DNA from: an uncultured Acidobacteriota bacterium
GTDB lineage: Bacteria; Acidobacteriota; Thermoanaerobaculia; Multivoradales; UBA5704
Direction of reading: 5' to 3'
Length of the DNA: 64,000 nucleotides
NCBI GenBank assembly: GCA_963700145.1
Contig: OY969474.1
Location: 3,808,001-3,872,000 of the forward strand
Shown piece after piece: positions 28,328 through 62,715 of this stretch (positions are counted from its first letter, which is position 1; every line of letters starts with the position of its first letter). The notes beneath the pieces are model-generated. The model worked only from the letters and a program-made list of their open reading frames with translations. It was not told the DNA's origin and ran no database searches. A program made the position numbers and the translations under genes.

Positions 28328-28336
28328 GAGCCCGAC

Positions 28337-29422: not shown

Positions 29423-29441
29423 GCCGGGCGCTACGGAACTG

Positions 29442-32423: not shown

Positions 32424-32522
32424 CACGGGTCTCCTCCAGCCATTGGTTGAGTTCTCGCCACCGGCCGAAGGCGCCGGCGGCGAGGGCTGTGCCGGTGGGG
32501 TGCGCGCTCTGCGCGCACGGCC

Positions 32523-34872: not shown

Positions 34873-34884
34873 GGGGGATGAAGC

Positions 34885-35214: not shown

Positions 35215-35259
35215 TCAAGCGCGGTCTGCTAAGTTAGGGCAGGTCAGCCGTTGGACTCG

Positions 35260-37412
<2,153 letters not shown>

Positions 37413-37416
<4 letters not shown>

Positions 37417-37814
37417 CCGAAGCCGATCGCCGTCCCCTGGTGCTCGTCGTCGACGACGTCCCGGACGGCCGGGAGATCTGCGCCGAGTACCTCGCCTTCC
37501 GCGGCTACGGCGTGGCCACCGCCGAGGACGGCAACGAGGCGCTGGAGAAGACTGCGAGCCTGCTGCCGGACGTGATCCTCATGGACCTCTCGTTGCCCGG
37601 CCTCGACGGCTGGGAGGCGACCCGGCGCCTCAAGCAGGACGAGCGCACCAAGCACATCCGCGTCATCGCGCTGACCGCGCACGCGCTGCCCTCGGCCCAC
37701 GAGCGGGCGCGCGCGGCGGGGTGCGACGCGGTGGTCACCAAGCCGGTGCTGCCGGAGGACCTGGTCCTCGAGGTGCAGCGGCAGCTCGCGGCACGGGACG
37801 CCGCCGGGGAGTAG
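37413..37814 (+). CDS. Single-domain response regulator (DivK-like)
   Basis: 'VVDD', 'LMDLSLP', 'LTAHA', 'KP'; no output domain. Confidence 0.92.
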
Positions 37815-37823
37815 AGACGGACC

Positions 37824-38789: not shown

Positions 38790-39085
38790 TCCTCGTCGAC
38801 CGGCTGCTCCTGGGCGGCATCGGGTTCGTGCTCGACAAGATCGCGGCGGCGGTGGACACCGAGCTCAACGACGAGCAGCGGCTGCGCGAGGAGCTGCTCG
38901 CCGCCGAGATGCAGAACGAGCTGGGCGAGCTCTCGGACGAGGAGTTCGGCGAGCTGCAGGCCGAGCTGCTGGCCCGGCTGCGCGTCATCCGCGAGCGGCA
39001 GCGCGGCGAGCGCGAGGCGGGCATCGCCGGGGTGGTAAGCGTCGAGGTGAGCTTCGACTCCGGCGCGCCGGAGGACCGCGAGTAG
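38786..39085 (+). CDS. gvpG: Gas vesicle protein GvpG
   Basis: ATGA overlap; 'FVLDKIAAAVD.EL.D', 'ELGELSDEEF.....LL.RL'. Confidence 0.8.
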   Translation: MILVDRLLLGGIGFVLDKIAAAVDTELNDEQRLREELLAAEMQNELGELSDEEFGELQAELLARLRVIRERQRGEREAGIAGVVSVEVSFDSGAPEDRE

Positions 39086-41091
39086 CGGCACCCGCCTTCC
39101 ACCTCTACGGCGGCAAGGGCGGGGTCGGCAAGACCACCTGCGCCGCCGCGCACGCCCTCGCCGCGGCCGCCGCCGGCCGCCGCGTCCTCCTCGTCTCGAC
39201 CGACCCCGCCCACTCGCTCGGCGACGCCCTCGGCCTGAGGCTCGGCCCCACCCCGACGATCGTCCCCACCCGCCGCGGCGCCCTCGCCGCGGTCGAGCTG
39301 GCCGCGGCGCCGGCATGGGAGCGCTGGCTCGGCGAGCGGCGGGAGGGGCTGGCGGCGCTCGCCCTCCGCGGCACCTACCTCGACCGCGAGGACGTGGACC
39401 GCCTCTTCGCCTTGCCGCTCCCCGGCGTGGACGAGCTGGTGGGCATCCTCGAGCTGGCGCGCCTGGCACGCGCCGAAGAGCGGGACGAGGTGGTGGTGGA
39501 CACCGCGCCGACCGCGCACACGCTGCGGCTTCTCGCCATGCCGGAGGCGCTGCGCCGCTTCGCCGGCCTCCTCGCCGCGATGCAGCGGAAGCACCGCGCG
39601 GTGGCCGAGCGCCTGGCCGGCGCTTGGCGCCCCGACGCCGCCGACGCCCTGCCGGCCGGGATCGAGGCCGAAGCGGCGCTCCTCGGCGACCTCCTCCACG
39701 ACCCGCGCCGCGCCCGCTTCCACTGGGTGCTGCTGCCGGAGGCGCTGTCGCTCGCCGAAACGCGCGACGCGCTCGGCGAGCTGGCGGCCGGCGGGGTGCC
39801 GGTGGATGAATCGGTCGAGCTGGTGGTCAACCGCGTGACCCCGCCGCCTCCCGAGGCGTGCGGCACGTGCGAGGCACGGCGGACGGAAGAAGCTCGGGTA
39901 GTGAAAGAGCTGGAGGCCGCCTTCGCGAGGCTGCCAGTGCGATTCGTGCCGGCGGTCGAGCACGAGCCGCGCGGGCGAGCGGCGCTGCTGCGCCTCGCCA
40001 CGGCCCCGTCTGCGAAACCCTCTCTCCTTGTCATCCCGAGCGCAGCGAGGGATCTGGGCGGGGGCGTTTTACCAACCTGGCTCGACCGCCTCGCCCCGCC
40101 CGGCACCCGCCTCCTCCTCTTCGCCGGCAAGGGCGGCACCGGCAAGACGACCTGCGCCGCCGCCGCCGCCCTCCTCCTCGCCGAGCGCGACCCCGCCCGC
40201 CCGGTCCTCCTCCTCTCGACCGACCCCGCGCACTCGCTCGCCGACGTGCTCGCCGCGCCCCTCGACGACTCCGAGCGCCCGGTCCCCGCGGCGCCCGCGC
40301 ACCTCCGCGCCCGCGAGCTGGACGCCGCGGCGCGCTATCGGCTCTGGCGCGAGCGGCTCCGCGGCGGCCTCGCGGAGCTGCTCGGCGCCGAGGAGCGCGG
40401 TGCCGCCGGCGCCGGCCTGGCGCTCGACCGCGCCGTCGTCGAGGCGTTGCTGGAGGTCGATCCGCCGGGGCTCGACGAGCTGGTGGCGATCCTCGACCTG
40501 ACCGGCGAAGCCGGTCATCCTGAGGCGCGCGGCGCCGAAGGATCTCGCAGGCCGCCGTCGCACGGCTTGCAGACCGAGCGCCTCGTCGTCCTCGACACCG
40601 CCCCCACCGGCCACGCCCTGCGCCTGCTCGAGATGCCGGCCCTCGCCCTCGCCTGGGACCATGCCCTCCTCGCCATCCTCTTGAAGTACCGCGAGGTGCT
40701 GGGGCTGGGCGAGCTGGCGGCGGAGCTGGTCGAGCTGGCGCGGGGCCTCAAGCGCCTCCAGGTAGTGCTCGCCGACCCGGCGCGCACCCGCTGCGTGGCG
40801 GTGGCGCGGGCCGCCGAGCTGCCGCGGCGGGAGACCGGGCGGCTGCTCGCCGCACTCGCCGGGCTGGGGGTGGCGGCGCCGGCCGTCCTGGTCAACGCCC
40901 TCACGCCCCCCGGCTGCTCGCGCTGTCGGCAAGCCGCGGCGGCCGAGCGGCGGCAGCTCGCCGCGCTCCGTCTAGGGCTGCCGGCCGGCGCGGCTATGAT
41001 CCGGGCGCCGGCCGCGTTCCCGCCGCCGCGCGGCGCCGCCCCGCTCGCCGCCTGGGGCCGGAGCTGGAGCTGGAGCGAGAGCACCCCATGA
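39082..41091 (+). CDS. Tandem (pseudodimeric) ArsA/Get3-family ATPase; start probably non-canonical (GTA 39082)
   Basis: Frame is open from 39082 into ORF 39394..41091; two sets of GKGG(V/T)GKTT, STDPAHSL, PG(V/L)DEL, DTAPT(A/G)H and CxxC. Confidence 0.85.
   Translation, partial: VAAPAFHLYGGKGGVGKTTCAAAHALAAAAAGRRVLLVSTDPAHSLGDALGLRLGPTPTIVPTRRGALAAVELAAAPAWERWLGERREGLAALALRGTYLDREDVDRLFALPLPGVDELVGILELARLARAEERDEVVVDTAPTAHTLRLLAMPEALRRFAGLLAAMQRKHRAVAERLAGAWRPDAADALPAGIEAEAALLGDLLHDPRRARFHWVLLPEALSLAETRDALGELAAGGVPVDESVELVVNRVTPPPPEACGTCEARRTEEARVVKELEAAFARLPVRFVPAVEHEPRGRAALLRLATAPSAKPSLLVIPSAARDLGGGVLPTWLDRLAPPGTRLLLFAGKGGTGKTTCAAAAALLLAERDPARPVLLLSTDPAHSLADVLAAPLDDSERPVPAAPAHLRARELDAAARYRLWRERLRGGLAELLGAEERGAAGAGLALDRAVVEALLEVDPPGLDELVAILDLTGEAGHPEARGAEGSRRPPSHGLQTERLVVLDTAPTGHALRLLEMPALALAWDHALLAILLKYREVLGLGELAAELVELARGLKRLQVVLADPARTRCVAVARAAELPRRETGRLLAALAGLGVAAPAVLVNALTPPGCSRCRQAAAAERRQLAALRLGLPAGAAMIRAPAAFPPPRGAAPLAAWGRSWSWSESTP
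40029..40064. repeat. REP-like palindrome inserted in frame in the ATPase linker
   Basis: TGTCATCCCGAGCGCAGCGAGGGATCTGGGCGGGGG, near-identical to the intergenic copy at 43419. Confidence 0.8.
40514..40545. repeat. Second REP-like palindrome in frame in the ATPase
   Basis: GTCATCCTGAGGCGCGCGGCGCCGAAGGATCT. Confidence 0.7.
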
Positions 41092-41885
41092 GCCCCTCCC
41101 TGGCGACCTACGTCTACGCGCTCCTGCGCCGCCCGGCGGCGCCGGCCGTCGGCGGCGCGCCGGCGGGGCTCCCCGGCCTCTCCCCGCCGCGCGCGCTCGA
41201 CGCCGGCGGCGGCCTCTGGCTGGTGGCCGCCGACGCCCCGCTCCCCGACTACGGCGCCGACGAGATCGGCCGCCGCCTCGAGGACCTCTCCTGGGTCTCG
41301 ACCTGCGCCCTCGCCCACGAGCGCATGGTGGAGCACTTCGGCGCCGGCGCCACGCTGGTGCCGATGAAGCTCTTCACCCTCTTCGCCGGCGACGCGCGCG
41401 CCGTCGAGCACATCGGCGGCGAGCGCGAGCGGCTCGCGCGCCTGCTCGACCGCGTCGAGGGGTGCCGGGAGTGGGGGGTGCGGGTGCTCTTCGACGAGGC
41501 GGCGGCGCGGGCGGCGCTCGACGCTGAGGAGAACGGGGGAGAGGGCGGCGGGCCGAGCGGCGGCGCCGGCACCGCCTTCCTGCAGCAGAAGAAGCGGCAG
41601 CGGGAGGCTGCGCGGACCCTCGCCGCGCGCGCCGGCGCCGCGGCGGAAGAGCTGTTCGCGGCGCTCGCCGCCCGGGCGCGCGACGCCGTGCGGCGCGACC
41701 CGCCGGCGGCGGAGGTCGCCGCCCGCCTGCTGCTCGACGCCGCCTTCCTCGTGCCGGAGGAGACGGCGGCCGCCTTCGAGGATGTGGTCGGGCGCGGCGC
41801 CGAGGCGCTGCGGCGGCTGGGCGGCGACGTGACGCTCACCGGCCCCTGGCCGGCCTACAACTTCGCGGCCGAGGAGACGCGGTGA
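41088..41885 (+). CDS. gvpL: Gas vesicle protein GvpL/GvpF family
   Basis: 'YVYA', 'AHERMVE', 'LVPMKLFT', 'EWGVRV', 'AAFLV', 'TGPWPAYNF'. Confidence 0.85.
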   Translation: MSPSLATYVYALLRRPAAPAVGGAPAGLPGLSPPRALDAGGGLWLVAADAPLPDYGADEIGRRLEDLSWVSTCALAHERMVEHFGAGATLVPMKLFTLFAGDARAVEHIGGERERLARLLDRVEGCREWGVRVLFDEAAARAALDAEENGGEGGGPSGGAGTAFLQQKKRQREAARTLAARAGAAAEELFAALAARARDAVRRDPPAAEVAARLLLDAAFLVPEETAAAFEDVVGRGAEALRRLGGDVTLTGPWPAYNFAAEETR

Positions 41886-42124
41886 GCGAGCGGCTGCCGG
41901 CCGCGCGCGACGCCGGCGAGCTGATCGAGGTGGTGGCCGGGGCCGACGGCTCGCTTCTCGACATCGTCGATCACCTGCTCAACCAGGGGGTGGTGCTGAC
42001 CGGCGAGGTGGTGCTTGGGCTGGCGGACATCGATCTCATCTACCTCCGGTTGTCCGCCCTGCTCTGCGCCGCCGACCGCATCCTGCCGCGGGCTGGGGAG
42101 GGGGAGGGAGGGAAGGGGAGTTGA
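41882..42124 (+). CDS. Small gas vesicle protein, GvpA superfamily (GvpS/J/M-like)
   Basis: 'SLLDIVDHLLNQGVVLTGEVVLGLADIDLIYLRLSALL'. Confidence 0.82.
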   Translation: MSERLPAARDAGELIEVVAGADGSLLDIVDHLLNQGVVLTGEVVLGLADIDLIYLRLSALLCAADRILPRAGEGEGGKGS

Positions 42125-42810
42125 GCGCGCTGCGTGTGTATGCGGTGGTGCGGGCGGGGGCTGGCGAGCCGGTAGAAAAAGGCGCAAGTGGGGAGACGCT
42201 GCGGCTGGTCGCGTGCGGGGAGATCGCGGCGGTCGTGGGAGAGGCGGCGGATGTTTCGCTCTCGGCGGAGGCGCTGCGGCGGCACGACGAGACGGTCCGC
42301 CGGCTGGCGCTCGAGCTGGATCCGCTGCTGCCCGCCCGTTTCGGCGAGACGGCGCCGGACGAGGCGGCGCTCGTGCGGGCGCTGGCGCCGCGGGCGGCCG
42401 AGCTGGCGGAGGCGCTGGCGCGGGTCGCCGGCTGCGTGCAGATGACGCTTCGGGTGTTCGGGGAGAGCACGGAAGCGCCCGCGCCGGCCCTGCCCGAGAT
42501 CCTCGACGCGCCTCTCGCCGGGCCGGGCACGCGCTACCTCCTCCAGCGCCGCCTGGAGGCGGAGCGGGCGCGCTCACTGCCCGAGATCGCCGAGCTACGC
42601 GCCGCGCTCGCCCCGCTGCTGCGCGCCGAGCGGGTGGAGCGGCACGCCGCCGGCCGCCTCCTCGCCACCGCCTACGATCTGGTGGCCCGCGGCGACGCGC
42701 CGCGCTACGCCGAGCTGGTGCGGAGCGCCGCGGCCCGCGCCGACGGCCCGCGGGTCGCCCTCTCCGGCCCCTGGCCCCCCTACGCCTTCGCCCCGGAGGT
42801 GGGCCCGTGA
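42121..42810 (+). CDS. Gas vesicle protein GvpL/GvpF family (third paralogue)
   Basis: 'VYAVV', 'LLPARFG', 'GPGTRYL', 'SGPWPPYAF'. Confidence 0.8.
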   Translation: MSALRVYAVVRAGAGEPVEKGASGETLRLVACGEIAAVVGEAADVSLSAEALRRHDETVRRLALELDPLLPARFGETAPDEAALVRALAPRAAELAEALARVAGCVQMTLRVFGESTEAPAPALPEILDAPLAGPGTRYLLQRRLEAERARSLPEIAELRAALAPLLRAERVERHAAGRLLATAYDLVARGDAPRYAELVRSAAARADGPRVALSGPWPPYAFAPEVGP

Positions 42811-43157
42811 GCGAGCGGGAGGCGCTGCGGCTGGAGATCGAGGAGCTGGAGGGCATGCGCGCCGAGCTAGAGCGCCGCCTAGCCGCCCAGCCCGCCCCGT
42901 GCTGGAACGCCGCCCCCGAAGACGTCGAGCGCTCGGTAGCCCAGCTCGTCCTCGCCCTCGTCGAGTTTCTCCGCAAGCTGATGGAGCGCCAAGCCATCCG
43001 CCGCATGGAGCAAGAGACCCTCACCCCCGACCAGGTCGAAAAGCTCGGCATCGCCCTGATGAAGCTCGAAGAAACCGTCCACGACCTCGCCCGCCGCTTC
43101 GGAATCCGCCCCGAAGACCTCAACTTGGATCTCGGGCCTATCGGGAAGCTGACTTAG
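42807..43157 (+). CDS. gvpK: Gas vesicle protein GvpK
   Basis: 'LVLALVEFLRKLMERQAIRRME', 'DLNLDLGPIG'. Confidence 0.92.
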   Translation: MSEREALRLEIEELEGMRAELERRLAAQPAPCWNAAPEDVERSVAQLVLALVEFLRKLMERQAIRRMEQETLTPDQVEKLGIALMKLEETVHDLARRFGIRPEDLNLDLGPIGKLT

Positions 43158-43824: not shown

Positions 43825-44295
43825 ATGATCAGGATCACCCGGCAAACCGACTACGGCATCGTCCTGCTGAGCCATCTCGCGTCCAATGCCGAGCGGCGCT
43901 ACAACGCCCCGGAGCTGGCCGCCGAGGCCCATCTGCCCGTGCCGATGGTCGCCAAGATCCTGAAACTACTCGCCCGCGAGGGGCTTCTCGTGTCCCACCG
44001 CGGCGTCAAAGGCGGCTACAGCCTCGCCCGCCTCCCCGAGACCATCTCCATGGCCGAAATCATCACCGCCCTCGAAGGCCCCATCGCCCTGACCGAGTGC
44101 GTCGAAGAGACCGGCGTCTGCGTCCACGAGCCCATCTGCCCGTCGCGCAGCAACTGGCACGTCATCAGCCGCGCCGTGCGCCGGGCCCTCGAAGGGATCA
44201 CCCTGGCCGAGATGATCCACCCGCTCCCAGCCGCCGCCAAGCTGGTCACCCTGGGCTCCGGCCGCGCTGCGGCCCCGGCCCCGGCCAACATCTGA
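43825..44295 (+). CDS. Rrf2 family SUF Fe-S assembly regulator
   Basis: 'RITRQTDYG', '[13 protein letters not shown]', '[16 protein letters not shown]' (three Cys). Confidence 0.9.
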
Positions 44296-44306
44296 CGAGG
44301 ACGCCC

Positions 44307-46545
<2,239 letters not shown>

Positions 46546-46547
46546 CG

Positions 46548-47900
46548 ATGGCCACGACCCTGGAGACGCCGGCGACCGGCGTCGCCGCCGACGCCAGGAG
46601 CGGCTTCCTCGCCGACTGGGAGCGCTTCACGGCCGGGCGGCCGCGCAGCGAGCCGGCGGCCTTGGCCGCCCTCCGCCGGCGCGCCATCGAGCGCTTCGCC
46701 GAGCTCGGCTTCCCGTCGCAGCGCCAGGAGGAGTGGCGCTTCATCGACTTCGCGGCGCTCTCGAAGCTCGTCTTCCGGCGCGACGAGGCGGGGGAGTTCG
46801 CGCCCACCGAGGCCGAGGTGGCGCCGCACCGCATCCCGGGCGCGATCGAGCTGGTCTTCGCCAACGGCCGCTACGTGCCGCAGCTCTCACGCCTCGAGGG
46901 GCTGCCGGCCGGCGCCGTCGTGTCGGGGCTCGCCGAGCTCCTGGCGCGCGATCCGGAGCGCACCCTGCCGCTCCTCGGCCGCTACGCGAGCTCCGAGCGA
47001 CACCCGTTCGTCGCGCTCGCCACCGCCTTCCTCGCCGACGGCGCGTACGTCGAGCTGACGGCCGGGACGGTGCTCGCGGCGCCGGTGCACCTGATCTTCC
47101 TCTCCCGGGGCGACGGGATCGCGTCGTTCCCACGCGTCCTCGCCGTCGCCGGCGAGGCGTCGCAGCTCACCCTGGTCGAGACCTACGCCGGCGACGGCGC
47201 CTACTTCACGGCGCCGGTGACCGAGCTGGTCGCCGGGCCGGCCGCGGTCGTCGACCACTACAAGGTGCAGCGCGAGGGCCTCGGGGCCTTCCACCTCGCC
47301 ACCTTCCAGCTCCAGGCCGAGCGGTCGAGCGCGCCGTCGTCGCATTCGCTCGCCTTCGGCGGCGGGCTGGTGCGCAACGACGTCAACGCCGTCCTCGCCG
47401 GCGAGGGGGTGGACTGCATCCTCAACGGCCTCTACGTCCTCGAGGGGCGGCAGCTCGTGGACAACCACATGCGCGTCGAGCACGCGGCGCCCCACTGCGG
47501 CAGCCACGAGCTGTACAAGGGCGTCCTCGACGGCCACGCGCGCGCCGTCTTCAACGGTCTCATCTACGTCCACCCCGGAGCGCAGAAGACCGACGCCAAG
47601 CAGAGCAACCGCAACCTCCTGCTGTCGCGTCACGCCGTCGCCAACTCCAACCCGCAGCTCGAGATCTTCGCCGACGACGTCAAGTGCACCCACGGCTCGA
47701 CCGTCGGCCAGCTCGACGACGACGCCATCTTCTACCTGCGGTCGCGCGGCATCGGCGCCGACGCGGCGCGCAGCCTCCTCACCTACGCCTTCGCCAGCGA
47801 CATCGTGGCGCGGATCAAGGTCGAGGCGGTGCGCCACGACCTCGAGGAGTTCCTCTTCGCCCGGCTCCCCAAGGGGGAGATCGTGCGCCAGGCGGTGTGA
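46548..47900 (+). CDS. sufD: Fe-S cluster assembly protein SufD
   Basis: 'EEWRF', 'AQKTDAKQ', 'PQLEIFADDVKCTHG', 'FYLRSRGI'. Confidence 0.95.
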   Translation: MATTLETPATGVAADARSGFLADWERFTAGRPRSEPAALAALRRRAIERFAELGFPSQRQEEWRFIDFAALSKLVFRRDEAGEFAPTEAEVAPHRIPGAIELVFANGRYVPQLSRLEGLPAGAVVSGLAELLARDPERTLPLLGRYASSERHPFVALATAFLADGAYVELTAGTVLAAPVHLIFLSRGDGIASFPRVLAVAGEASQLTLVETYAGDGAYFTAPVTELVAGPAAVVDHYKVQREGLGAFHLATFQLQAERSSAPSSHSLAFGGGLVRNDVNAVLAGEGVDCILNGLYVLEGRQLVDNHMRVEHAAPHCGSHELYKGVLDGHARAVFNGLIYVHPGAQKTDAKQSNRNLLLSRHAVANSNPQLEIFADDVKCTHGSTVGQLDDDAIFYLRSRGIGADAARSLLTYAFASDIVARIKVEAVRHDLEEFLFARLPKGEIVRQAV

Positions 47901-47902
47901 CG

Positions 47903-49167
<1,265 letters not shown>

Positions 49168-49171
<4 letters not shown>

Positions 49172-49632
49172 CCGTCGCCGACCTCTCCGATCTCTACCAG
49201 GAGGTCATCCTCGACCACAACCGCAGACCGCGGAACTTTGGCGAGCTGCCGGCGGCCAACCGCACGGCGCGCGGCCACAACCCGCTGTGCGGCGACAAGG
49301 TGACGCTCTTCGTGCAGGTCGCCGGGGACCGCGTCGAGGACATCGCCTTCCAGGGCAGTGGCTGCGCCATCTCGATGGCGGCGGCGTCGCTGATGACCGA
49401 GGCGCTCAAGGGGGTGCCCGTCGAGGAGGCGCAGTCTCTCTTCGAGGGCTTCCACCGCCTGGTCACCAGCCGCCCCGGCGAGCCGGTCGAGGTGCCGGCC
49501 GAGCTGGGGAAGCTCGCCGTCTTCGCCGGCGTGCGCGACTACCCGGTGCGCGTCAAGTGCGCCACCCTTCCCTGGCACACCTTCAATGCGGCGCTCGCCG
49601 GCGGCGATGCGCGCCCCGTCTCGACGGAGTAA
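49168..49632 (+). CDS. sufU: SufU (NifU-like) sulfur transfer protein
   Basis: 'LYQEVILDH', 'NPLCGD', 'GCAIS', 'RVKCATL.WH'. Confidence 0.93.
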
Positions 49633-49634
49633 CC

Positions 49635-49985
49635 ATGTCCGAACCGATCGCCCCTCCCGTGCCCGCTCCGTTCGCCGCCTCCGACGACATCGAAGCCGGC
49701 GTCGTCGAGGCCCTCAAGTCGATCTTCGACCCCGAGATCCCGGTCAACATCTACGAGCTGGGCCTCATCTACGACCTGGAGGTCGCGCCCGACGGCCAGG
49801 TCGGGATCAAGATGACCCTGACCTCCCCGGCCTGCCCGGTCGCCGGCTCGCTGCCCCCCGAGGTCAAGGCGAAAGTGGAAAATGTGCCCGGCGTGACCGG
49901 CGCCGAGGTCGAGGTCGTGTGGGACCCGGTGTGGAACCCGTCGATGATGTCGGAGGCCGCCCGGCTGCAGCTCGGCATGTTCTAG
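49635..49985 (+). CDS. sufT: SufT / DUF59 Fe-S assembly protein
   Basis: 'DPEIPVNIYELGLIY', 'MTLTSPACPVAG'. Confidence 0.9.
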   Translation: MSEPIAPPVPAPFAASDDIEAGVVEALKSIFDPEIPVNIYELGLIYDLEVAPDGQVGIKMTLTSPACPVAGSLPPEVKAKVENVPGVTGAEVEVVWDPVWNPSMMSEAARLQLGMF

Positions 49986-53596: not shown

Positions 53597-54481
53597 ATGG
53601 CCGCCCTGCCCGAGCCCGGTCCCGCCCGCGAGGCGCCGCCGCCGGTGCCGGTCGCCTTCGTCAAGTACTACGACAAGGGATCGACGCTGATGGGGGCGCA
53701 CCAGATCGCCGACGGCCTGGCGGCGCGCGGCTGGCAGGCGCGCGCCATCTACGCCCGCGAGCTGCCGGCGGTGCGCCGCGGCATCCTGGTCTTCATCAAG
53801 ACCTCGCGGCTCGACCACCTGCTCGCCGCCCGCGCGCGCGGCAACCGCCTCGTCCTCGACGTTCAGGACACGGTGGTCTTCAAGCGGCGGATCAAGAACC
53901 GCTGGCTCTACGACGCGCTGATCCTCAAGAACCGGCGCCAGCTCGCCGACTTCGGCCGGCCGGGCCGCGCCGACTGCCTCATCTACCACCAGTGGGACCC
54001 GCGCTACGCGCCGAACCGCGCGCCGCAGGACCGGCTGGAGGTCGCCTACGTCGGGCTGCCGCGCTCGTTCGACCTCTGGGGGCGGCTGCCCGGCGTCGCC
54101 TGCGTCGAGGACGGGCTCGCCGCCGGCGCCGCCAGCGGCTTCAACTGCCACCTCTCGGTCCGCCGGCAAGGCCGCGAGTTCCTCTACAAGCCGAACTGCA
54201 AGGTCTCGACCGCCGCCGCCTGCGACGCCGTCCTGGTCACCACGCGCGACGTGACGACCGTCGAGCTCCTCGGGGAGGACTACCCCTTCTTCTGCGAGCC
54301 GGAGCCGGGCGCCATCCAGGACGCGCTCGAGCGGGCGCGCGCCGCGCTCGGCAGCCGCGCCTGGCAGGAGGCGCGGGCCCGCCTCCGCGCCGTGCGCGAG
54401 CGCACCAGCCTCGAGCGCGTGCTCGACGACTACGAGGCCCTCCTCCGCGGCCTCGGGTCGCCCCCGGTGGGCGTCCGGTGA
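53597..54481 (+). CDS. Putative GT-B fold glycosyltransferase-like protein
   Basis: 'VLDVQD', 'KPNCKVSTAAA', 'DYPF'; adjacent to a GT14 gene; weak motifs. Confidence 0.5.
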   Translation: MAALPEPGPAREAPPPVPVAFVKYYDKGSTLMGAHQIADGLAARGWQARAIYARELPAVRRGILVFIKTSRLDHLLAARARGNRLVLDVQDTVVFKRRIKNRWLYDALILKNRRQLADFGRPGRADCLIYHQWDPRYAPNRAPQDRLEVAYVGLPRSFDLWGRLPGVACVEDGLAAGAASGFNCHLSVRRQGREFLYKPNCKVSTAAACDAVLVTTRDVTTVELLGEDYPFFCEPEPGAIQDALERARAALGSRAWQEARARLRAVRERTSLERVLDDYEALLRGLGSPPVGVR

Positions 54482-54522
54482 ACGCCACGCCGGGACGCCC
54501 GCCCATGCCAGATTGGTGAGCG

Positions 54523-55440
54523 GTGCGCGTCGCCTACTTCGTCCAGAGCCACGGCCTTGTGGCCCAGGTCGTACGGCTGCTCGCCGCCCTCCGGCGCGGC
54601 GACCCGGACGCCGCCCTGGTGGTCGGGCATTGCCCGACCGCGGAGCCGCTCCCGCGGCGCGATCTCGAGCGCTTGGGAGCGTTGAGCTTCCGGCACCGCC
54701 GCAGGGCCGAGCGGGGCTCGTGGTCGCTTCTCGAGCCCTACTTCGACGCCGTCGAGCTCCTGCGCCGCGAAGGCGTTGGCTACGACTGGCTCGTCTATCT
54801 GTCGGGGCAGGACTACCCCGTGCGACCCTTGGCGACCTGCGCAGCGGAGCTCGCGGCCAGCGACTACGACGGCTATCTGACGTGGCGGGCGGCGGAGGCC
54901 GCGAGCCCGGACGGCAGGCGCCACCGGGGGCGGCTGCGCTACCACTATCAGTATCGCGAGCTGCCCGGCCGGGAGCGCTTGCTGCGCGAGCTGCAACCGC
55001 TCAACCATCTGCAGCGGATCTTCCACGTCCACCTCACCTATGGGCCGCGGCTGGGGCTGCGGGCCCGCGGCTCCCCGTTCCGCTCCGGCTTCAGGGCCTA
55101 CTTCGGCTCGCAGTGGACCACCCTCCGCCGCGCCTGCGCCGAGCGCGTGGCGGAGGCCGGTTCGACCGGCAAGCTCGCGGCCTGGTTCCAGCGCACCATC
55201 TGCCCCGATGAAGCGTTCGCCCAGACCGTGCTGATCAACGACGGCCGCTTCCGGCTCTGCAACGACAACCTGCGCTTCGTCGACTTCGGCGTCTCACGCG
55301 ACGGCCGGCCACGCATCCTCCGCCTGAGCGACGCGCCGGCACTGTTCGCCGGCGGCTACCACTTCGCGCGCAAGTTCGACCTGGCGGTCGACCGCGAGGT
55401 CCTCGACCGTATCGACCGCGAGCTGCTGGGCGTCGGATAG
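54523..55440 (+). CDS. GT14 / Core-2/I-branching beta-1,6-GlcNAc transferase-like protein
   Basis: 'LSGQDYP', 'GSQW', 'PDEAFAQT', 'NLRFVD', 'FARKFD'. Confidence 0.85.
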   Translation: MRVAYFVQSHGLVAQVVRLLAALRRGDPDAALVVGHCPTAEPLPRRDLERLGALSFRHRRRAERGSWSLLEPYFDAVELLRREGVGYDWLVYLSGQDYPVRPLATCAAELAASDYDGYLTWRAAEAASPDGRRHRGRLRYHYQYRELPGRERLLRELQPLNHLQRIFHVHLTYGPRLGLRARGSPFRSGFRAYFGSQWTTLRRACAERVAEAGSTGKLAAWFQRTICPDEAFAQTVLINDGRFRLCNDNLRFVDFGVSRDGRPRILRLSDAPALFAGGYHFARKFDLAVDREVLDRIDRELLGVG

Positions 55441-55460: not shown

Positions 55461-58400
55461 ATGCTCGAGCCGCACCCCCCTCCGGCCGGAGAGTCTCCGC
55501 CGGTCAAGCCGCCCCGCATCCGCCGGCGCCGGCGGCTCGTCCTCCTCATCCTGTCTCTGGTCATCGGCTTGCCGCTCCTCGCGGTCCTGGCGACCGTCGC
55601 CGGACTCCGCTCGGCCGCGGTCCGCCGCGCCCTCCTCGCCCGGGTCTCGACCTACCTCGACCGCGAGCTGGGGCTGGCCTTCGCCGCCGCCGACTTCGAC
55701 TTCCGTCTCGACGGCGTCGAGCTCGAAGACGTGCGGCTCGGCGCGCCGGGGGCGGCGCCGCTCCTCACCGCCGAGCGGATCGTCGCCGGGGTCGACTACG
55801 GCACCCTGCGCAGCGCGGTCCTGGTCATCCGGCGGTTGGAGGTGGTGGCGCCGCGCCTCGACCTCGCCGCACCGTTCCCCGAGCTGCCGGCGGCGGAGCC
55901 CGCGGCGCCTCCGGGGTTCGAGATCCGACGCCTCGTGCTGCGGCGCGGTGCGATCGCCGGAGCGCCGCCGAGCGGGAAGGCGGCCGAGTGGGTACGGAGC
56001 TGGCAGGTCGGCGCGATCTCGGGACGCGGCTCCTTCGTCGCCGGCACGTGGACGCTGGCGCTCGACGGCGCGCGCGGGCGGCTCGAGCGGCCGGGGTTCG
56101 AGCCGCTCGATCTGGACCTCGCGGGGCGGGCGCGCTACCGCGACGGCCGGCCGCTCGAGATCGCCGCGCTGCGCGCAACCGGCGACGGGCTCCGGCTGAG
56201 CGGGTCCGGCACGGTGGGGTTGGGTCCCGGGCAGCCGACCGCCGTGGAACTCCAGGTGGAGGCCGAGCCGCGGCTCTTCGCCGCCGGCGCGCCGCCCGGG
56301 GGAGTCGTCCGCGCCGAGGGGACGCTTCGGCTTCCCGAGTCCACTGGCCGGCTCGCCCTCTCGGCGGGCGCGTTCCCGGCCGAGGCGTTGCGACCCTACC
56401 TGGATCGCGAGCTGTTCGCCGGCGTGGAGCTCGCGGGAACGGTGGCCGACGCCCGCGCCACGCTGGTCGTGGGACCTGGGTCCTTGGCGCGCATCGCGGG
56501 CGCAGCGACCGCCACCTGGCGGCGGGGGAGCCGGCGGCTGGCGCGCGCCGCGGGCAGCGTCGAGCCTGGCCCGGAGGGCGCCGTCCGCCTGGTCGCGGAA
56601 GTCGACCTCTTGCCCGACTCCGCTGGCCGCCGGTACGTTCACGGCACGGTCGCGGCGGCGAGCTTGGCCGGCCTCGGGGAAGGCACGGCGGAGCGGATCG
56701 CGGCCGAGCTCCGCGCTCCCGACGCGCGGACGGCCTGGGAGGAGCTGCGCTCCCTCTGGCCCCGCTTCGTCCCCGCGATCCCCGCCGGCGCGCCGGTGCA
56801 GGGCGCGATTGCGGCGGACGTGACGCTCGCCGGCCCGCTCGCCTCGCCGCGCGCGGAGCTCGCGGCGTCGTGGACGCCGGCCGCCGGGTCGCGGGTCCGG
56901 ATCGAGGCCGAAGGGTTTCCCCGCAGCGGCTCCGGCTCGGCCGCGGTCGACTTCGAGGCCCTGCCGGTGGCGCTGCTCGGTCCTCTCGCCGGCACACCCG
57001 AAGGCTGGGCCGGCACGCTCTCGGGACGACTCGACCTCTCCGGCTCGCGCGCCGGTCTTCACGCCCGCCTGGACGCCACCGGGAACGAGCTTGCCGCACC
57101 CGCCGCCGCCGGCACGACCGCCACCGCCGAACGGCTCCACGTCGTGCTCGACGGGGACGTGGGGCTCGAGCCGCTGTCGTGGGCCGGCACCTACACGCTC
57201 GACCTCTCCGGCCTCGACGCTCCCGGGACGGTCCGCGCCGCGGCCGTGCGCGTCGAGGGAGACGGCCGCTTCGCCGGCGCGCTCGCCGGCCTCGCCGGGA
57301 CGGCGCGCCTCGCCGGGTCCACGATCGAGATCGCCGCCGCCGGCACCGCCCTCGACGCGCTGGCGCTGGACGCCTCGGTCGGCGGCAGCGAGCTGCGCCT
57401 CGCGTCGTTCTCCGCCGCCGCCGGCGAGCGGACGCTCGCGGGCTCCGGCCGCTTCCTCCTCGAGCCGCTCCTCGCCGAGGCCGACCTCGACCTGCGGCTC
57501 GGGGGGGTGCACGCGGCGTTGCGCGAGGCCGCGCTGACCGCGGCGCTGCGCGGCGGCACCCTGTCGATCTCGGCGCCGCGGATCGACAGCGCCGCCGGCC
57601 TGGCGAGCCTGGAGGCGACGGTGCCGCTCGGGGCCCTGCGCGCGATCCCGCAGCTCGCCGCGGCGCTCGACGCGCTCCCCTTCGCCCCCGCCGCCGGTCC
57701 GGTGTCGCTCCGCCTCCGCGCCCCCGCGCTCGACTCGGCGCCGCTCCTCGCCGCCCTCGCTCTCGCGCCGCGGCCGGAGCGGCTGCGCGCCGGCCTCGCC
57801 GCCGACCTCACCTTCGATCCCGCCTCACCCGCGGCCGGCCGCGGCGAGGTCCGCCTCGAAGGGCTCACGGTCGAGACTCCCGACGCGCGCGCGGCGGCCG
57901 AGGACCCGGCCGTCGCGCGGCTCGGCGGCGGGCGGCTGGAGCTCCTGCCGGTGCGCGTCCGGTTCGCCGGCGGCGCGGTCGCGGGCGCGGGCGCCGGCGT
58001 CGAGCTGAGCGGCCATGCCGACCTCGATCCCGCCTGGCGGCCGCAGCACGATCCGCCCGCGGCCCTGTTCTCCCGCCTCGCGCTCGACGCCGCCGGCACC
58101 CTCGACGCGGCCGTCCTCAACCCCTACCTCGCGGGGGGTGCCGGCGCCGGCGCTCTCTCCCTGACCGCCGCGGTCTCCGGCCCGCCCGACGCGCTCGCGG
58201 CGGAGGTGCGGGCCGCGGGCCCCGAGGCGTCCTTCTTCTGGGCGGCGCCCTACGCCACCCGCCTCCAGGCTCCCGAGGCGGTTCTCGCGCTGCGCGGCGG
58301 CCGCTGGCGCCTCGAGCGCGGCAGCGCGCTCTGGAACGGCGGCGCGCTCGCGGCCTCCGGCGGCAGTCGGCCGGAGGGCGGGGCGGCGCTCGCCTTCGAC

Positions 58401-61400
58401 CTCTCCGGCGTCCGCTACCGCCTCGACTACGGGCTCTCGGCGCTGCTGAGCGGCCGGCTCGTCCTCGACCTGCCGGCCGCCGGGCGCTCGCGCCTCTCCG
58501 GGCGGCTGACCCTCGACCGCGGCCTGCTCGACCGCAACGTCAACCTCGACCGCGAGGTGCGTGCCCTCCTCTTCGCTGCCGAGGACCTCCCCGGCACCGA
58601 GGAGAGTGCGCTCGCGGCGATCGACCTCGACCTGGCGGTGGACACCGTCGACGGCGTCCGCGTGCGCAACAACGTCGCCGACCTGCGCGCCTGGTGGCAG
58701 TCGCTGGAGGTCACCGGCACCCCCGAGCTGCCGGTCGTCGAGGGGCGGATCGAGCTCGACCCGGGCGGCCTCCTCTTCGCCTACGGGCAGACCGTGCGGA
58801 TCGACAGCGGCGCGCTGGTCTTCACCGGCGACCCGCTCATCGACCCGCTGGTCGAGCTCACCACGACCAGCTCGCTCCAAGACCCGACGATCGCGCGCCT
58901 GCGCGGCGACGAGAGCCCGCTCGACCTCCTCGACCCGTCCGGGGCGGAGCCGGCGAGTGCCGGCGCCCGGGACGCGCTCGCCGCCGGCTTGGCCGGCTAC
59001 TACGGCACGCGCGCCCTCTCCCGGCTCGGCGAGTCGGTCGGCCTCCAGCGCATCGCCCTCCGCCCCGTCCTGGTCTTCCAGGAGACGGACCCGAGCGCCC
59101 GGCTCGACCTCGGCCACGACCTCTCGCCGCACGCCGCCTTCGCCCTCTCGATCGACCTGCGGAACGCCGAACGCCGCACCTATCTGCTCGACCTCCACGG
59201 CTTCCGCGAGCTGCCGGGCCTGGCGCTGCAGGGCTTCGTCAACGACGAGGGGCGCGAAGGGGCGAGCCTGCAGCAGGTCCTGGAGCTGGGCGGCGGGCGC
59301 CCGCCGGCGGAGGCGGGGCCGCGCCTGCGCCGCCTGCGCCTGGAGGCGCCCGGCGGCGCGCTCCGCCGCCGGGCCCTCCGCCGCGCCGTGCCGCTGGAGC
59401 GCGGCGCGCCGGTGCCGGAGAGCGCCCCCTTCGACGTCGAGGTCGTCCTCGCCGACACCCTCCGCCGCCGGGGTCACCCCGATCCGCGGATCGCTGTCGC
59501 GGTCGTTCCCGTCGAAGGGCGCCCGGGGCGGGTGGACGTCGAGGTCCGCGTCGAGCCCGGTCCGCGGGCGGAGCTCGTCTTCGCCGGCGACCGGCCGCCC
59601 GCGGCCGTCCGCCGCGAGATCGCCGCCCTCTATCGCACCGACTTCTACGAGCCGGCGTCGATCGAGGAGATGAAGGAGGAGGCGGTCCGCGCCTTGCGCG
59701 GCCGCGGCCACCTCGACCCGCGGGTCGAGGTCGAGGTGGAGGCGCGGCCGGACGGCGCGCGCACCGTCACCGTGCGCTCGGAGGCGGGGCCGCGGGTGGA
59801 GCTGCGTGAGCTGGCGATCGCCGGGCTCGACGCCGAGGCGGCGGCCGTCGCCGCCTGGCGCTTCGCCGGCACCCTCGCCCGCGCCGAGCTGGCCGCGGGG
59901 CTGCCGGGCGCCGACCGCCGCCTCATCGAGACGCTCCGCGCCCTCGGCTATCCGGAGGCGAAGATCCTCGGCCGGACGCTCGAGGAGGACGGCAAGCGGC
60001 TCTCCGTCCAGGTCGAGCCCGGCGAGCGACAGGTCGTCGAAAGGGTCGCGCTCTCGGGGGTCGGGGAGGAGGAGCGGCGGCGGCTCGCGGCGCTTCTGCC
60101 CGTCGCCCCGGGTGACCCGGTGCGGCTCGACCGCATCGCCGAGGGGGCGCTCCTCCTCGAGCGCGCGCTCGCCGCCGAGGGGCACCCCGATGCCGTGATC
60201 CGGCCGTCGGTGCTGCCGGGCGCGGCCGCGTCCCTCCGTCCGCTCGCGATGGAGGTCCATTACGCGGTCGCGCCGGGGCCGCGGCTCGAGCTGGCCGGCG
60301 TCGAGTTCCAAGGCGAGCGCTGGACGCGGCCGGCGCGACTCCAGCGGATCGCCGGGCTCGAAACGGGGGGTCCGTTCACCGCCGGCGCCGTCGAGGAGGC
60401 GCGGGCCCGCCTCTTCCGTAGCGGCAGCTTCGCGCGCGTCACCGCCGAGGTGGACCGCCCGGGAGACGGCGCGGCGCGCGTCCGCTTCTCCCTCGCCGAG
60501 CGGCCGCGCTTCCACCTCGGCTACGGCGTGCGCTGGGAGAGCACCGTCGGTCCAGCCGCCGTGGTCGATCTCGTGGACGCCAACTTCCTGGGCCGCGGCC
60601 TGACCCTCGGCCTGCGCGGCCTCTACGAGACCGACGACCGGAGCGGCCGCCTCTTCCTACGCACCGGCGCCTTCTCCCGCGCCGGGCTGTCGCTCGAGGC
60701 GTACGCCCAGGGGCGCCGCCGGCTGCCCGAGGAGAACCTCGTCGAGGACAGCCTGGAGACGGCGCTCCAGCTCGCCCGCCCCCTCGGCGCGCGGACCACC
60801 GCGCGGCTCTACGCCCGCTACCGCACGACGCGTCTCTTCGAAGAGGAGCCCGATCCCTTCTTCCCGCTCGAGATCGAGATCACCCATCCCTACCTCGGCA
60901 CGCAGCTCCTCTACGACGCCCTCGACGACCCGCTCGACCCGGCGGACGGCCTCTTCGCGAGCTTCGATCTCTCCGGCAGCGGGCCCCTCGTCAGCAGCGA
61001 TTTCGAGTACGCCAGGATGTTCGGGCAGCTGCAGCTCTATCGCGCCGCCGCGGCGGGCGGGCGGCGCTTGGTCTGGGCGCAGTCGCTGCGGCTGGGATGG
61101 GCGCAGGCCTTCGGCGGCCAGGAGCTCCTCCGTTTCGAGCGCTTCTTCGCCGGCGGCGAGCACTCGGTGCGCGGCTACCCGACGGAGGGCTTGGGGCCGC
61201 GGGAAGTGCTGGGGGACCTCACGCGGCCGCTCGGCGGCGAGGCGCTGCTCGTCCTCAACGAGGAGCTGCGGATGCGGCTGCCTTGGGACCTGACCGGCCT
61301 CGTCTTCCTCGACGCCGGCCAAGTATGGACGGACGCCGCCGACTTCGGCTCGGACCTGGCCACCGCCCTCGGGCTCGGGCTGCGCGCGCAGACCCCGATC

Positions 61401-61493
61401 GGCCTCCTCCGCCTCGACGCCGCCTTCCCCCTCGACCGCCGCCCGGGCGACGAGAGCTGGCGCCTCTACGTCGGCTTCGGCAACGCGTTCTGA
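55461..61493 (+). CDS. TamB (AsmA-like/DUF490) fused to POTRA domains and an Omp85 (TamA/BamA-type) barrel
   Basis: RRRRR plus N-terminal TM; long beta-rich TamB-like region; POTRA-like repeats; 'NFLGRG', 'RFFAGGEHSVRGY', 'GLGLR..TPIG.LRLD', terminal 'GNAF'; one open frame of 2010 aa. Confidence 0.87.
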   Translation: MLEPHPPPAGESPPVKPPRIRRRRRLVLLILSLVIGLPLLAVLATVAGLRSAAVRRALLARVSTYLDRELGLAFAAADFDFRLDGVELEDVRLGAPGAAPLLTAERIVAGVDYGTLRSAVLVIRRLEVVAPRLDLAAPFPELPAAEPAAPPGFEIRRLVLRRGAIAGAPPSGKAAEWVRSWQVGAISGRGSFVAGTWTLALDGARGRLERPGFEPLDLDLAGRARYRDGRPLEIAALRATGDGLRLSGSGTVGLGPGQPTAVELQVEAEPRLFAAGAPPGGVVRAEGTLRLPESTGRLALSAGAFPAEALRPYLDRELFAGVELAGTVADARATLVVGPGSLARIAGAATATWRRGSRRLARAAGSVEPGPEGAVRLVAEVDLLPDSAGRRYVHGTVAAASLAGLGEGTAERIAAELRAPDARTAWEELRSLWPRFVPAIPAGAPVQGAIAADVTLAGPLASPRAELAASWTPAAGSRVRIEAEGFPRSGSGSAAVDFEALPVALLGPLAGTPEGWAGTLSGRLDLSGSRAGLHARLDATGNELAAPAAAGTTATAERLHVVLDGDVGLEPLSWAGTYTLDLSGLDAPGTVRAAAVRVEGDGRFAGALAGLAGTARLAGSTIEIAAAGTALDALALDASVGGSELRLASFSAAAGERTLAGSGRFLLEPLLAEADLDLRLGGVHAALREAALTAALRGGTLSISAPRIDSAAGLASLEATVPLGALRAIPQLAAALDALPFAPAAGPVSLRLRAPALDSAPLLAALALAPRPERLRAGLAADLTFDPASPAAGRGEVRLEGLTVETPDARAAAEDPAVARLGGGRLELLPVRVRFAGGAVAGAGAGVELSGHADLDPAWRPQHDPPAALFSRLALDAAGTLDAAVLNPYLAGGAGAGALSLTAAVSGPPDALAAEVRAAGPEASFFWAAPYATRLQAPEAVLALRGGRWRLERGSALWNGGALAASGGSRPEGGAALAFDLSGVRYRLDYGLSALLSGRLVLDLPAAGRSRLSGRLTLDRGLLDRNVNLDREVRALLFAAEDLPGTEESALAAIDLDLAVDTVDGVRVRNNVADLRAWWQSLEVTGTPELPVVEGRIELDPGGLLFAYGQTVRIDSGALVFTGDPLIDPLVELTTTSSLQDPTIARLRGDESPLDLLDPSGAEPASAGARDALAAGLAGYYGTRALSRLGESVGLQRIALRPVLVFQETDPSARLDLGHDLSPHAAFALSIDLRNAERRTYLLDLHGFRELPGLALQGFVNDEGREGASLQQVLELGGGRPPAEAGPRLRRLRLEAPGGALRRRALRRAVPLERGAPVPESAPFDVEVVLADTLRRRGHPDPRIAVAVVPVEGRPGRVDVEVRVEPGPRAELVFAGDRPPAAVRREIAALYRTDFYEPASIEEMKEEAVRALRGRGHLDPRVEVEVEARPDGARTVTVRSEAGPRVELRELAIAGLDAEAAAVAAWRFAGTLARAELAAGLPGADRRLIETLRALGYPEAKILGRTLEEDGKRLSVQVEPGERQVVERVALSGVGEEERRRLAALLPVAPGDPVRLDRIAEGALLLERALAAEGHPDAVIRPSVLPGAAASLRPLAMEVHYAVAPGPRLELAGVEFQGERWTRPARLQRIAGLETGGPFTAGAVEEARARLFRSGSFARVTAEVDRPGDGAARVRFSLAERPRFHLGYGVRWESTVGPAAVVDLVDANFLGRGLTLGLRGLYETDDRSGRLFLRTGAFSRAGLSLEAYAQGRRRLPEENLVEDSLETALQLARPLGARTTARLYARYRTTRLFEEEPDPFFPLEIEITHPYLGTQLLYDALDDPLDPADGLFASFDLSGSGPLVSSDFEYARMFGQLQLYRAAAAGGRRLVWAQSLRLGWAQAFGGQELLRFERFFAGGEHSVRGYPTEGLGPREVLGDLTRPLGGEALLVLNEELRMRLPWDLTGLVFLDAGQVWTDAADFGSDLATALGLGLRAQTPIGLLRLDAAFPLDRRPGDESWRLYVGFGNAF

Positions 61494-61593: not shown

Positions 61594-61842
61594 ATGAGCA
61601 CCTTGATTGACAAGCCCCTGAGCGCCCGTCACCGGGACGGCAAGATCCACATCACGATGGAGAGCGGCCTCGAAGTCGCTTTCCCCGTGAAGGGCAACCC
61701 GCGCCTGGAAGGCAGGTCCCCTGCCGAGCTCGACCAGATCGAGCTCTCTCCGTTCGGCCTGCACTGGCCCGAGCTAGACGAGGATCTCTCGATCCGCGGG
61801 ATCCTCTCCGGGAACTACGGCCAACGCCGGCAGGCGGCCTAA
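61594..61842 (+). CDS. DUF2442 family protein (orphan TA-type antitoxin)
   Basis: 'PRL', 'GLHWPELDEDLSI.GIL.G'. Confidence 0.85.
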   Translation: MSTLIDKPLSARHRDGKIHITMESGLEVAFPVKGNPRLEGRSPAELDQIELSPFGLHWPELDEDLSIRGILSGNYGQRRQAA

Positions 61843-61857: not shown

Positions 61858-62715
61858 CTACCGCTTCGCCGCCCTGAGGACGGCTTTGGCGCGCTCGGCT
61901 TCGGGGGCGTTGGGGGCGAGGGCGATGAAGCGCTCGAGGTCGTTGATCAGCAGGTCCTTGCGCCCCAGCTTCTCGGCGGCGAGGCCGCGGTAGTAGTAGG
62001 CGTAGGCGAGCCCCGAGTCCATGGCGATGGCCCGGTCGAGCTGCTCGACCGCCGCCCCCCACTGCTCCTGGAAGGCGCGGGTGACGCCGATCTGGAAAGG
62101 CACCAGCGCGTTGCCGCCGTCGGCGCCGCGGGCCCGCTCGAAGGCCGCGACCGCCTGGTCGAACTGCCGCAGCCGCTGCTGGGCGAGCCCGAGGTAGTAG
62201 TCCTTCTCGCGCCCGCCGCCGCCGGCCTGCGCCAGCTCGGCGGCGCGGCGGAAGGCGGCGTCGGCTTGGCCGCTGTTGCGCTGCCGCAGGTAGACCTCGC
62301 CCAGAAACACGTGGGGCGCCGGATCGGCCGGCGCGAGCTGCGCCGCCCTCTGCAGCCGCGCGGCGGCGTCGCCGTAGCGCTGCTCCTGCTCGAGCACCCG
62401 CCCGAGCGCCACCGCCACGTGCGCGTTCTGCTCGGCCTGGCCGGCGACCCCGTCGATGGCGGCCCGCGCCTCCGCCGTCCTGTGCTCGCGGAGCTTGCGG
62501 TCGACCGTGCCGACGGCGGGCGGCGGCGGCTCGGCAGGTGCGGGGGCCGGGGCGGCGGCCGGCTGCTGCGGCTGCCCTTTGGGCGGCGGCGGCGGCTTCT
62601 TCCCCTTGCCCTTGCCGCCCTGCGCCGCGGCGGACGCGGGCAGGAGCAGGAGCGCGCAAAGGACGGCGAGCGAGAGAGACAGGTGGCGCGGGAGACGCGA
62701 GGTGGTACGACGCAT
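61858..62715 (-). CDS. Secreted tetratricopeptide repeat protein
   Basis: Signal peptide, Pro-rich linker, TPR motifs ('HVFLGEVY', 'YYLGLA', 'AYYYRGLA'). Confidence 0.88.
   Translation of the reverse strand: MRRTTSRLPRHLSLSLAVLCALLLLPASAAAQGGKGKGKKPPPPPKGQPQQPAAAPAPAPAEPPPPAVGTVDRKLREHRTAEARAAIDGVAGQAEQNAHVAVALGRVLEQEQRYGDAAARLQRAAQLAPADPAPHVFLGEVYLRQRNSGQADAAFRRAAELAQAGGGGREKDYYLGLAQQRLRQFDQAVAAFERARGADGGNALVPFQIGVTRAFQEQWGAAVEQLDRAIAMDSGLAYAYYYRGLAAEKLGRKDLLINDLERFIALAPNAPEAERAKAVLRAAKR

Follow-up and report, generated by a model that had tools for sequence, protein, structure and literature searches.

A single-chain TamB–Omp85 fusion conserved in Acidobacteriota and its likeness to the TAM complex

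In the TAM (translocation and assembly module) of Escherichia coli the last strand of TamB (βS) pairs with strand β1 of TamA to form a hybrid barrel (PMC13119328, PMC12800296), and a disulfide lock between these two strands leaves TAM functional (PMC13119328); here and below, what is said of a published paper refers to the passages of it that were covered. TamB transfers lipid in vitro (PMC13542527). Whether TAM serves lipid transport or protein insertion is still argued, and two cryo-EM studies of 2026 disagree on the stability of the hybrid barrel (PMC12800296, PMC13119328). Acidobacteria encode a duplicated BamA with seven POTRA domains together with TamB (Heinz et al. 2015, PMC4494059). 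We analysed a stretch of 64,000 nucleotides (the window) from an uncultured Acidobacteriota bacterium (GenBank assembly GCA_963700145.1, contig OY969474.1, positions 3,808,001 to 3,872,000), in which one long gene had been predicted, from the letters and their open reading frames (ORFs), to encode a TamB–TamA fusion that could span both membranes. A covalent TamB–Omp85 fusion, anchored in the inner membrane and ending in an outer-membrane barrel, was upheld by the sequence, by two structure models and by hundreds of relatives.

The fusion probably works like TAM, with one moiety of the TamB family and one of the Omp85 family. It shares with the E. coli complex (9xdc/9xdd; PMC12800296, PMC13119328) the inner-membrane anchor, the β-taco, the amphipathic helix and the C-terminal strands of TamB, as well as the geometry of the three-POTRA arm, the 16-stranded barrel and, as a prediction for the fusion, the register in which βS meets β1. 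Unlike E. coli TAM, it is one polypeptide in which TamB precedes Omp85 and no Omp85 signal peptide is present, and it has five POTRAs, an internal, tethered βS and a predicted extracellular tetratricopeptide repeat (TPR) partner. TamA has three POTRAs, whereas five are found in BamA as in the fusion. The BamA paralogue of Heinz et al. comes from the same phylum and is likewise a TamB-associated Omp85 with more than three POTRAs; however, that system consists of separate genes in the order BamA–TamB, which is the reverse of the order in our five-POTRA fusion (PMC4494059).

The gene runs from ATG to TGA with a single stop and without any N. Although the GC content of this region is 72–80%, and long open frames commonly arise by chance in such DNA, the GC content at third codon positions was 0.80–1.00 in the fusion frame across all 50-codon blocks, including those at 59200-59400, which argues that the ORF is no GC-rich read-through of a frameshift. 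The same fusion was present in independent assemblies at identities from 98% down to 27%. A lost stop codon or frameshift, arising from sequencing or assembly, was thus ruled out by codon bias and homologous fusions, and we regard the chance of such an artefact as vanishingly small. Pfam matches above cut-off were found for TamB (aa 1046–1141, E = 1e-10; 41.7 bits, cut-off 22.4), POTRA (E = 8e-17) and Omp85 (aa 1708–2010, E = 4e-38), and a sub-threshold match to DUF748 was located at aa 18–164 (E = 0.003). The VRGY motif starts at aa 1903 and the last residue is Phe. Most of what the original prediction had described was thereby borne out: the single ORF of 2010 aa, the basic N-terminal stretch with its transmembrane (TM) anchor, on which hydropathy and a modelled helix agree, the TamB/AsmA-like β region, which has both a Pfam match and a structural match to E. 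coli TamB, the several POTRA-like repeats, which number five by model and profiles, and the Omp85 barrel. Scans for promoters and terminators found none.

The N-terminal half was modelled with AlphaFold2 (aa 1–1190, 49 alignment rows, mean pLDDT 85.9, pTM 0.55). The model showed a helix at residues 22–50, a second helix at 52–70 and then β structure up to residue 1137. Hydropathy placed a hydrophobic helix at aa 24–54, following the basic stretch, and hydropathy alone called a signal anchor for 96 of the 97 full-length proteins (the window protein included) and for 87 of 101 full-length proteins of the Vicinamibacteria set. The top match of the model in a VIA search of 48,161 chains was TamB (9xdd_B, Z = 14.2, rmsd 3.6, 220 residues aligned), while the N-terminus of Vps13 (6cbc_B) gave a middling Z of 7.2 against aa 57–244. 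Foldseek listed ApoB100 first, and TamB and LPD-3 were also among its matches; a sequence search of the PDB returned no TamB chain among the best 60 of 75 matches. One strand face was richer in hydrophobic residues, with a modest excess over shuffled assignments (208 of 314 against 193 ± 5, maximum 207). On this model the β-taco would form a continuous hydrophobic groove.

A second AlphaFold2 model covered aa 901–2010 (74 alignment rows, pLDDT 85.0, pTM 0.72). In it the last part of the taco gave way to an amphipathic helix and the TamB strands; the linker came next, then the five POTRAs and a barrel of 16 strands. The hydrophobic moment of the amphipathic helix at aa 1168–1192, which was matched to TamB αH3 by eye from the alignment, was 0.74, compared with 0.67 for E. 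coli TamB 1160–1185. Five C-terminal TamB strands were modelled, together with a sixth at low confidence. βS stops at aa 1276, with 734 residues still to come, so that DUF490 and βS do not lie at the C-terminus of the chain as they do in TamB. When TamA POTRA1–3 (4bza_A) was superposed, it fell on POTRA 3–5 (residues 550–795 in the numbering of the C-terminal model, used for all structure alignments from here on; Z = 15.5, rmsd 3.9, 231 residues aligned), and the alignments of whole TamA (9xdc_A and 8us1_A) started at residue 548. Profiles found five POTRAs in three fused proteins from three subfamilies (the window protein, P0238 and P0265).

The linker between the two halves bears on whether the chain persists in the cell. 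The protein might instead be a polyprotein, made in one piece and then split close to the linker into a normal TamB and a normal Omp85; the linker is variable, rich in Gly, Pro and Arg and probably exposed, and both halves keep all of their stand-alone features, the TamB βS included. Against such processing, the 281 aligned rows showed no conserved motif in the linker beyond a leading GG and a final P and no hydrophobic segment, hence nothing resembling a conserved cleavage site, and there is no signal peptide ahead of POTRA1 in the fusion. Linker length ranged from 8 to 22 aa in these rows and was held at 10–12 aa in 234 of them, as expected for a tether, and the presence of two extra POTRAs is most easily understood if they form a loop, which only a lasting link would require. 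We consider a polyprotein unlikely, and the chain would remain uncleaved.

The position of the TamB strands relative to the barrel was read from structure alignments of the C-terminal model. TonB-dependent barrels of 22 strands aligned from residue ~301–310 through 1106, porins of 18 strands from residue ~347–352 through 1106, and closed BamA barrels from residue 355. From these starting points, the AlphaFold model appears to place the TamB strands in the barrel wall. The E. coli cross-link T267–E1258 maps by alignment, with the TamB C-terminus matched by eye, to H1685–E1275, which corresponds to an antiparallel register with an aa sum of 2960. This register ranked first among 1214 strand-to-strand registers, with a covariation score of 5.22 in 212 non-redundant sequences; at the same register, 40 shuffles of each kind gave a maximum of 1.46 (free) and 3.29 (within-clade). 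The model, the covariation and the analogy suggest that the fusion may form a hybrid barrel like that of E. coli TAM. The coupling loop of TamB gave no clear covariation signal with the POTRA arm, and the pLDDT of this loop was low.

Several observations weigh against the hybrid barrel. It was read from alignment ranges, in a chain modelled as two overlapping halves. The best register of the shuffled alignments also reached 5.22 in 2 of 40 and 1 of 40 cases. The covariation was not reproduced in 118 Vicinamibacteria sequences, in which the register ranked 107 of 1356 with a score of 1.44; shuffled alignments attained this value at the same register in 2 of 60 and in 1 of 60 cases. In βS, Gln stands where TamB has Y1255, and the last position is Leu, Phe or Trp. 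About half of E. coli TAM was found in a non-hybrid state in one of the cryo-EM studies (PMC12800296). Finally, covariation is blind to whether strands pair in cis or in trans. This last point, together with the shortness of the linker, also favours a domain-swapped oligomer, in which βS enters the barrel of a neighbouring chain and several bridges share one junction. The monomer model nevertheless accommodates the pairing, with a linker pLDDT of 77–86 at the pTM given above, and we regard the swapped arrangement as very unlikely.

The other half of the original label, TamA, did not hold as well as TamB did, since the Omp85 half has five POTRAs and scored below the cut-offs of both NCBIfam models, NF047950 for TamA (112 bits, cut-off 625) and TIGR03303 for BamA (154.6 bits, cut-off 297.15). 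Judged from sequence, it is neither a canonical TamA nor a canonical BamA. The fusion could still be an insertase of outer-membrane proteins (OMPs), BamA-like or a TAM assembly module, with TamB as a tether or chaperone channel. The number of POTRAs is that of BamA, the BamA profile outscores that of TamA, the L6 VRGY and the C-terminal motif are strongly conserved (in the β-signal Y2003, G2005, G2007 and F2010), and the top VIA rows of the C-terminal model were BamA–substrate complexes. On the other side, both profile scores lie far under their cut-offs, the barrel groups apart from E. coli BamA in the tree described below, and an attached βS would fill β1, an occupancy argued to block the folding of OMP substrates (PMC13119328). 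We therefore consider an insertase quite improbable. Of the two functions that had been proposed for the fusion, lipid transport is favoured and OMP assembly disfavoured, because βS appears to fill the very site of β1 that an insertase needs.

We think it fairly probable that the protein is a single-chain TAM that acts as a self-docking phospholipid bridge rather than as an OMP insertase. The N-terminal helix would remain in the inner membrane, serving as a signal anchor that escapes cleavage, and the β-taco of ~1060 aa would form a hydrophobic groove across the periplasm. The C-terminal strands would enter the outer membrane, where βS would pair with β1 of the Omp85 barrel in the same chain, and a hybrid barrel with as many as 22 strands would result, as the model and the covariation suggest and as has been solved for the two-chain TAM of E. 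coli. Because βS would end on the periplasmic side beside β1 and the linker is short, the two extra POTRAs would supply the path by which the chain returns to the far end of the TamA-like three-POTRA arm. By analogy with TamB, phospholipids may move along the groove and exit at the amphipathic helix.

The original prediction had asked how a barrel is inserted while it is tethered. The chain would be exported by Sec behind its anchor, the taco would fold first, and the barrel would be inserted afterwards, presumably by a separate β-barrel assembly machinery (BAM) acting on a late-emerging barrel with an intact β-signal while the chain is still tethered. Such insertion is plausible: the barrel emerges last and has a conserved β-signal, TamB reaches the outer membrane while anchored, and the long MlaD of Veillonella parvula offers a precedent. 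Like the fusion, that MlaD combines an inner-membrane helix with a C-terminal outer-membrane barrel and takes part in phospholipid trafficking; unlike it, MlaD is an MCE hexamer with an α-helical shaft, a 10-stranded barrel and a retrograde role, and the folds are unrelated (PMC10665443).

Relatives were sought with the junction-spanning query aa 900–2010, which returned 293 matches in proteins of 1105–3518 aa. Among the 120 matches listed, 119 covered at least 99% of the query and 118 carried PF04357 and PF01103, which supplied the full-length homologues that the prediction had called for; the organisms named were Thermoanaerobaculia or Acidobacteriota. The best 150 matches in a profile search of 50%-identity representatives were mostly 1850–2280 aa long. 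Pooling of both searches gave 264 proteins (the window protein included), of which 231 had both halves; both the query and the length window favoured fused forms. The other 33 look like fragments: 15 had the TamB side alone and all extended beyond the junction, and none of the 18 with the barrel side alone opened with a signal peptide before POTRA1, as judged by eye. Stand-alone halves among close relatives were rejected accordingly. No plasmid record covered 80% of the query, and weak matches were found in 63 records.

In GTDB genomes we found 35 loci, six of which were cut by contig ends. A stop codon splitting the two halves, which would have told against a fusion, was absent from the junction in the remaining 29, and 28 of these formed one stop-free ORF. 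The 29th (L015) was broken inside the POTRAs, beyond the junction; in this locus (7184-13372) frame changes disrupt the POTRA region of the orthologue and also its TPR neighbour, and the breaks are probably assembly indels.

Two of the GTDB loci belonged to Vicinamibacterales, at 27% identity, and a member from this order used as query gave 498 further matches, with source names assigned automatically such as 'BamA', 'BamA/...Ta[mB]' and 'TamB domain-containing'. In the sole search for shorter proteins, too, the query was the Vicinamibacterales member instead of the window protein; 8 of its 44 matches of at least 600 aa had clear signal-peptide-like starts, at 23–30% identity. These stand-alone Omp85 proteins have ~seven POTRAs by profiles and are the nearest unfused relatives found; we infer that they belong to the clade of Heinz et al. 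A tree of 63 chosen proteins, with few outgroups, was built from their last ~400 aa, E. coli BamA being the only named BamA and E. coli TamA and BamA both forming long branches. The 50 rows labelled fused fell on one side of a branch with support 100/98, apart from the long branch of E. coli BamA; the rows P0449 and P0478 ('fused') and P0497 ('solo') are fragments labelled by assumption. The simplest reading of these sequences is a single old origin of the fusion, which is conserved in at least two Acidobacteriota classes, those of the Thermoanaerobaculia and Vicinamibacterales loci. A match of P0001 in the ESM Atlas led to a cluster of 109 members (representative 1611 aa, Omp85 in 98%, TamB in 28%) for which no POTRA family was listed, and which is possibly a second, POTRA-less TamB–Omp85 fusion.

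The fusion is apparently undescribed, although its domain set was tabulated once: in Data_Sheet_2 of a 2014 survey a single protein under BamA(2) combines PF01103 and PF04357 with two copies of PF07244, without comment in the passages found (PMC4104836). No description of a TamB–Omp85 fusion was found in the full-text literature searched, which leaves out most subscription papers and also the supplements of Heinz et al. (2015) and of the 2026 preprint, where such proteins could be listed. None was described in the passages covered of PMC4494059, PMC4104836, PMC12800296, PMC11014939, PMC6791001, PMC10345924 and PMC11361582, or in the first 300,000 characters of PMC13721041. The patatin (PlpD), WD40 and metallo Omp85 fusions resemble ours in having an extra N-terminal domain before the POTRA and barrel, and for none of them do the passages covered mention a lipid bridge or anchoring in the inner membrane (PMC4104836). 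The coordinates of the fusion and of the adjacent TPR gene are collected in Table 1.

Table 1. Positions of the fused gene, its parts and the neighbouring TPR gene in the window
Feature	Position	Strand	Basis
Whole fused gene, TamB-type bridge with five POTRAs and Omp85 barrel, 2010 aa	55461..61493	+	
Basic stretch, TM signal anchor (aa 22-50) and amphipathic helix (aa 52-70)	55512..55670	+	Hydropathy, model
Continuous β-taco, aa 73-1137, chorein-like start, DUF490 core aa 1046-1141	55677..58871	+	AlphaFold2
Amphipathic helix, aa 1168-1192, counterpart of TamB αH3 ('valve' helix)	58962..59036	+	Model helix
TamB C-terminal strands, ending in βS, aa 1266-1276	59052..59288	+	Model, conservation, covariation
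Fusion linker, 11 aa	59289..59321	+	Where the TamB stop and Omp85 signal peptide would lie
POTRA 1-2, extra pair, aa 1288-1441	59322..59783	+	Model, POTRA profiles
POTRA 3-5, TamA-like three-domain arm, aa 1450-1680	59808..60500	+	Structure alignment
16-stranded Omp85 barrel, aa 1684-2010, C-terminal β-signal ending in Phe	60510..61493	+	Pfam, model, conservation
L6 VRGY in the Omp85 barrel	61167-61178	+	
Exported TPR protein, 285 aa, convergent, signal-peptide-like start	61858..62715	-	Pfam

The TPR gene was the only neighbour retained at most loci. It was present at 23 of the 27 loci with enough flanking sequence, 22 times downstream and once upstream, and absent from four; three further loci were too short to judge. 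The stop codons of the two genes often overlap, and abut in most relatives. In the window a small DUF2442 ORF (61594-61842, +) sits between them. Upstream, at 53597-55440 (+), there is a glycosyltransferase-like ORF with a Core-2/I-branching enzyme (PF02485) that ends 20 bases before the fusion starts; these genes were rejected as parts of the system, as they are not conserved beside the relatives.

By eye, the N-terminus of the TPR protein has the look of a cleavable signal peptide and contains no lipobox. Complex prediction for this protein with fusion aa 1236–2010 gave a score of 0.77, compared with 0.09 for the best control; the mark used was passed by 116 of 157 solved complexes and by 2 of 215 mismatched pairs, counts that apply only roughly to our own alignments. 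The runs agreed in at least 97% of contacts, and the pLDDT of the partner was at least 83. The model is evidence in favour of binding, not a demonstration of it. The predicted interface comprised aa 1754–1764, 1786–1811, 1847–1848, 1883–1892 and 1916–1922, which by Omp85 topology and alignment we take to be extracellular loops L3–L6 and strand extensions. Such an interface implies that the contact is not BamD-like and that the TPR protein must reach the surface, where it is predicted to cap the barrel from outside the cell. The complex model ignores compartments, and a periplasmic location of the TPR protein would make the interface unreal; the interface was no more conserved than other parts of the protein (0.70 vs 0.69), and its conservation adds no support. 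The canopy of the Bacteroidota BAM similarly has partners (BamH/BamM) on extracellular pillars of an Omp85 barrel, but those are lipid-anchored subunits of an essential insertase, whereas the fusion has a single, apparently non-lipidated TPR protein known from prediction (PMC12611786); 'TPR' was absent from the covered text of that paper.

A signal-peptide-like start and no evident lipobox in a protein predicted on extracellular loops, encoded adjacent to the fusion at most loci, could also point to a dedicated exporter, whose barrel moves the TPR protein to the surface in the style of two-partner secretion and keeps it bound. The genes are convergent and not co-transcribed, however, the neighbour is missing from four loci, the Pfam ShlB match lies under its cut-off, and the large taco and the βS-blocked gate would be left unexplained, so that we hold an exporter to be highly improbable. 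We put forward only tentatively, as the more doubtful extension of the phospholipid bridge, a trans-envelope machine of three layers: an uncleaved chain, held in the inner membrane and reaching across the periplasm, whose 22-stranded barrel is split in sequence by a ring of five POTRAs and capped outside the cell by a secreted, non-lipidated TPR protein that was possibly exported by the barrel itself.

The window holds further features. A gas-vesicle cluster at 34579-43154 (+), in what is apparently a Thermoanaerobaculia genome, contains three Gas_vesicle-family ORFs, three GvpL/F, GvpG and GvpK; an ArsA-type ATPase accompanies them, and a PAS histidine kinase and a response regulator are embedded in the cluster. 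At 20281-20852 (-) a ribbon-helix-helix gene and, after it, one for a PemK/MazF-like toxin make up a type II toxin–antitoxin pair. The region 43825-49985 (+) starts with an Rrf2 regulator gene, and the ORFs after it are presumably a suf-type iron–sulfur assembly operon. A LiaF-like membrane protein, a LytS/LytTR-type two-component pair and an adjoining TonB-dependent receptor are encoded at 27599-30176 (+) and 30210-32426 (-).

A lineage in which the two subunits were joined long ago and have stayed joined offers the locked TAM state in a natural form. Fusion sets the stoichiometry at 1:1, and the insertase site should remain filled. With one gene it becomes testable whether a single chain can replace tamAB in E. 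coli, and whether BAM can fold a barrel that is tethered to the inner membrane and one that is interrupted by POTRAs. The N-terminal half of TamB has yet to be resolved by cryo-EM (PMC13119328), and a single chain may ease such work at full length. The predicted surface TPR protein offers a tangible starting point in the search for a new subunit. If the extended proposal is true, BAM must fold a barrel that comes in two parts, on a substrate still tethered, and TAM would gain a surface subunit not described in the literature covered.

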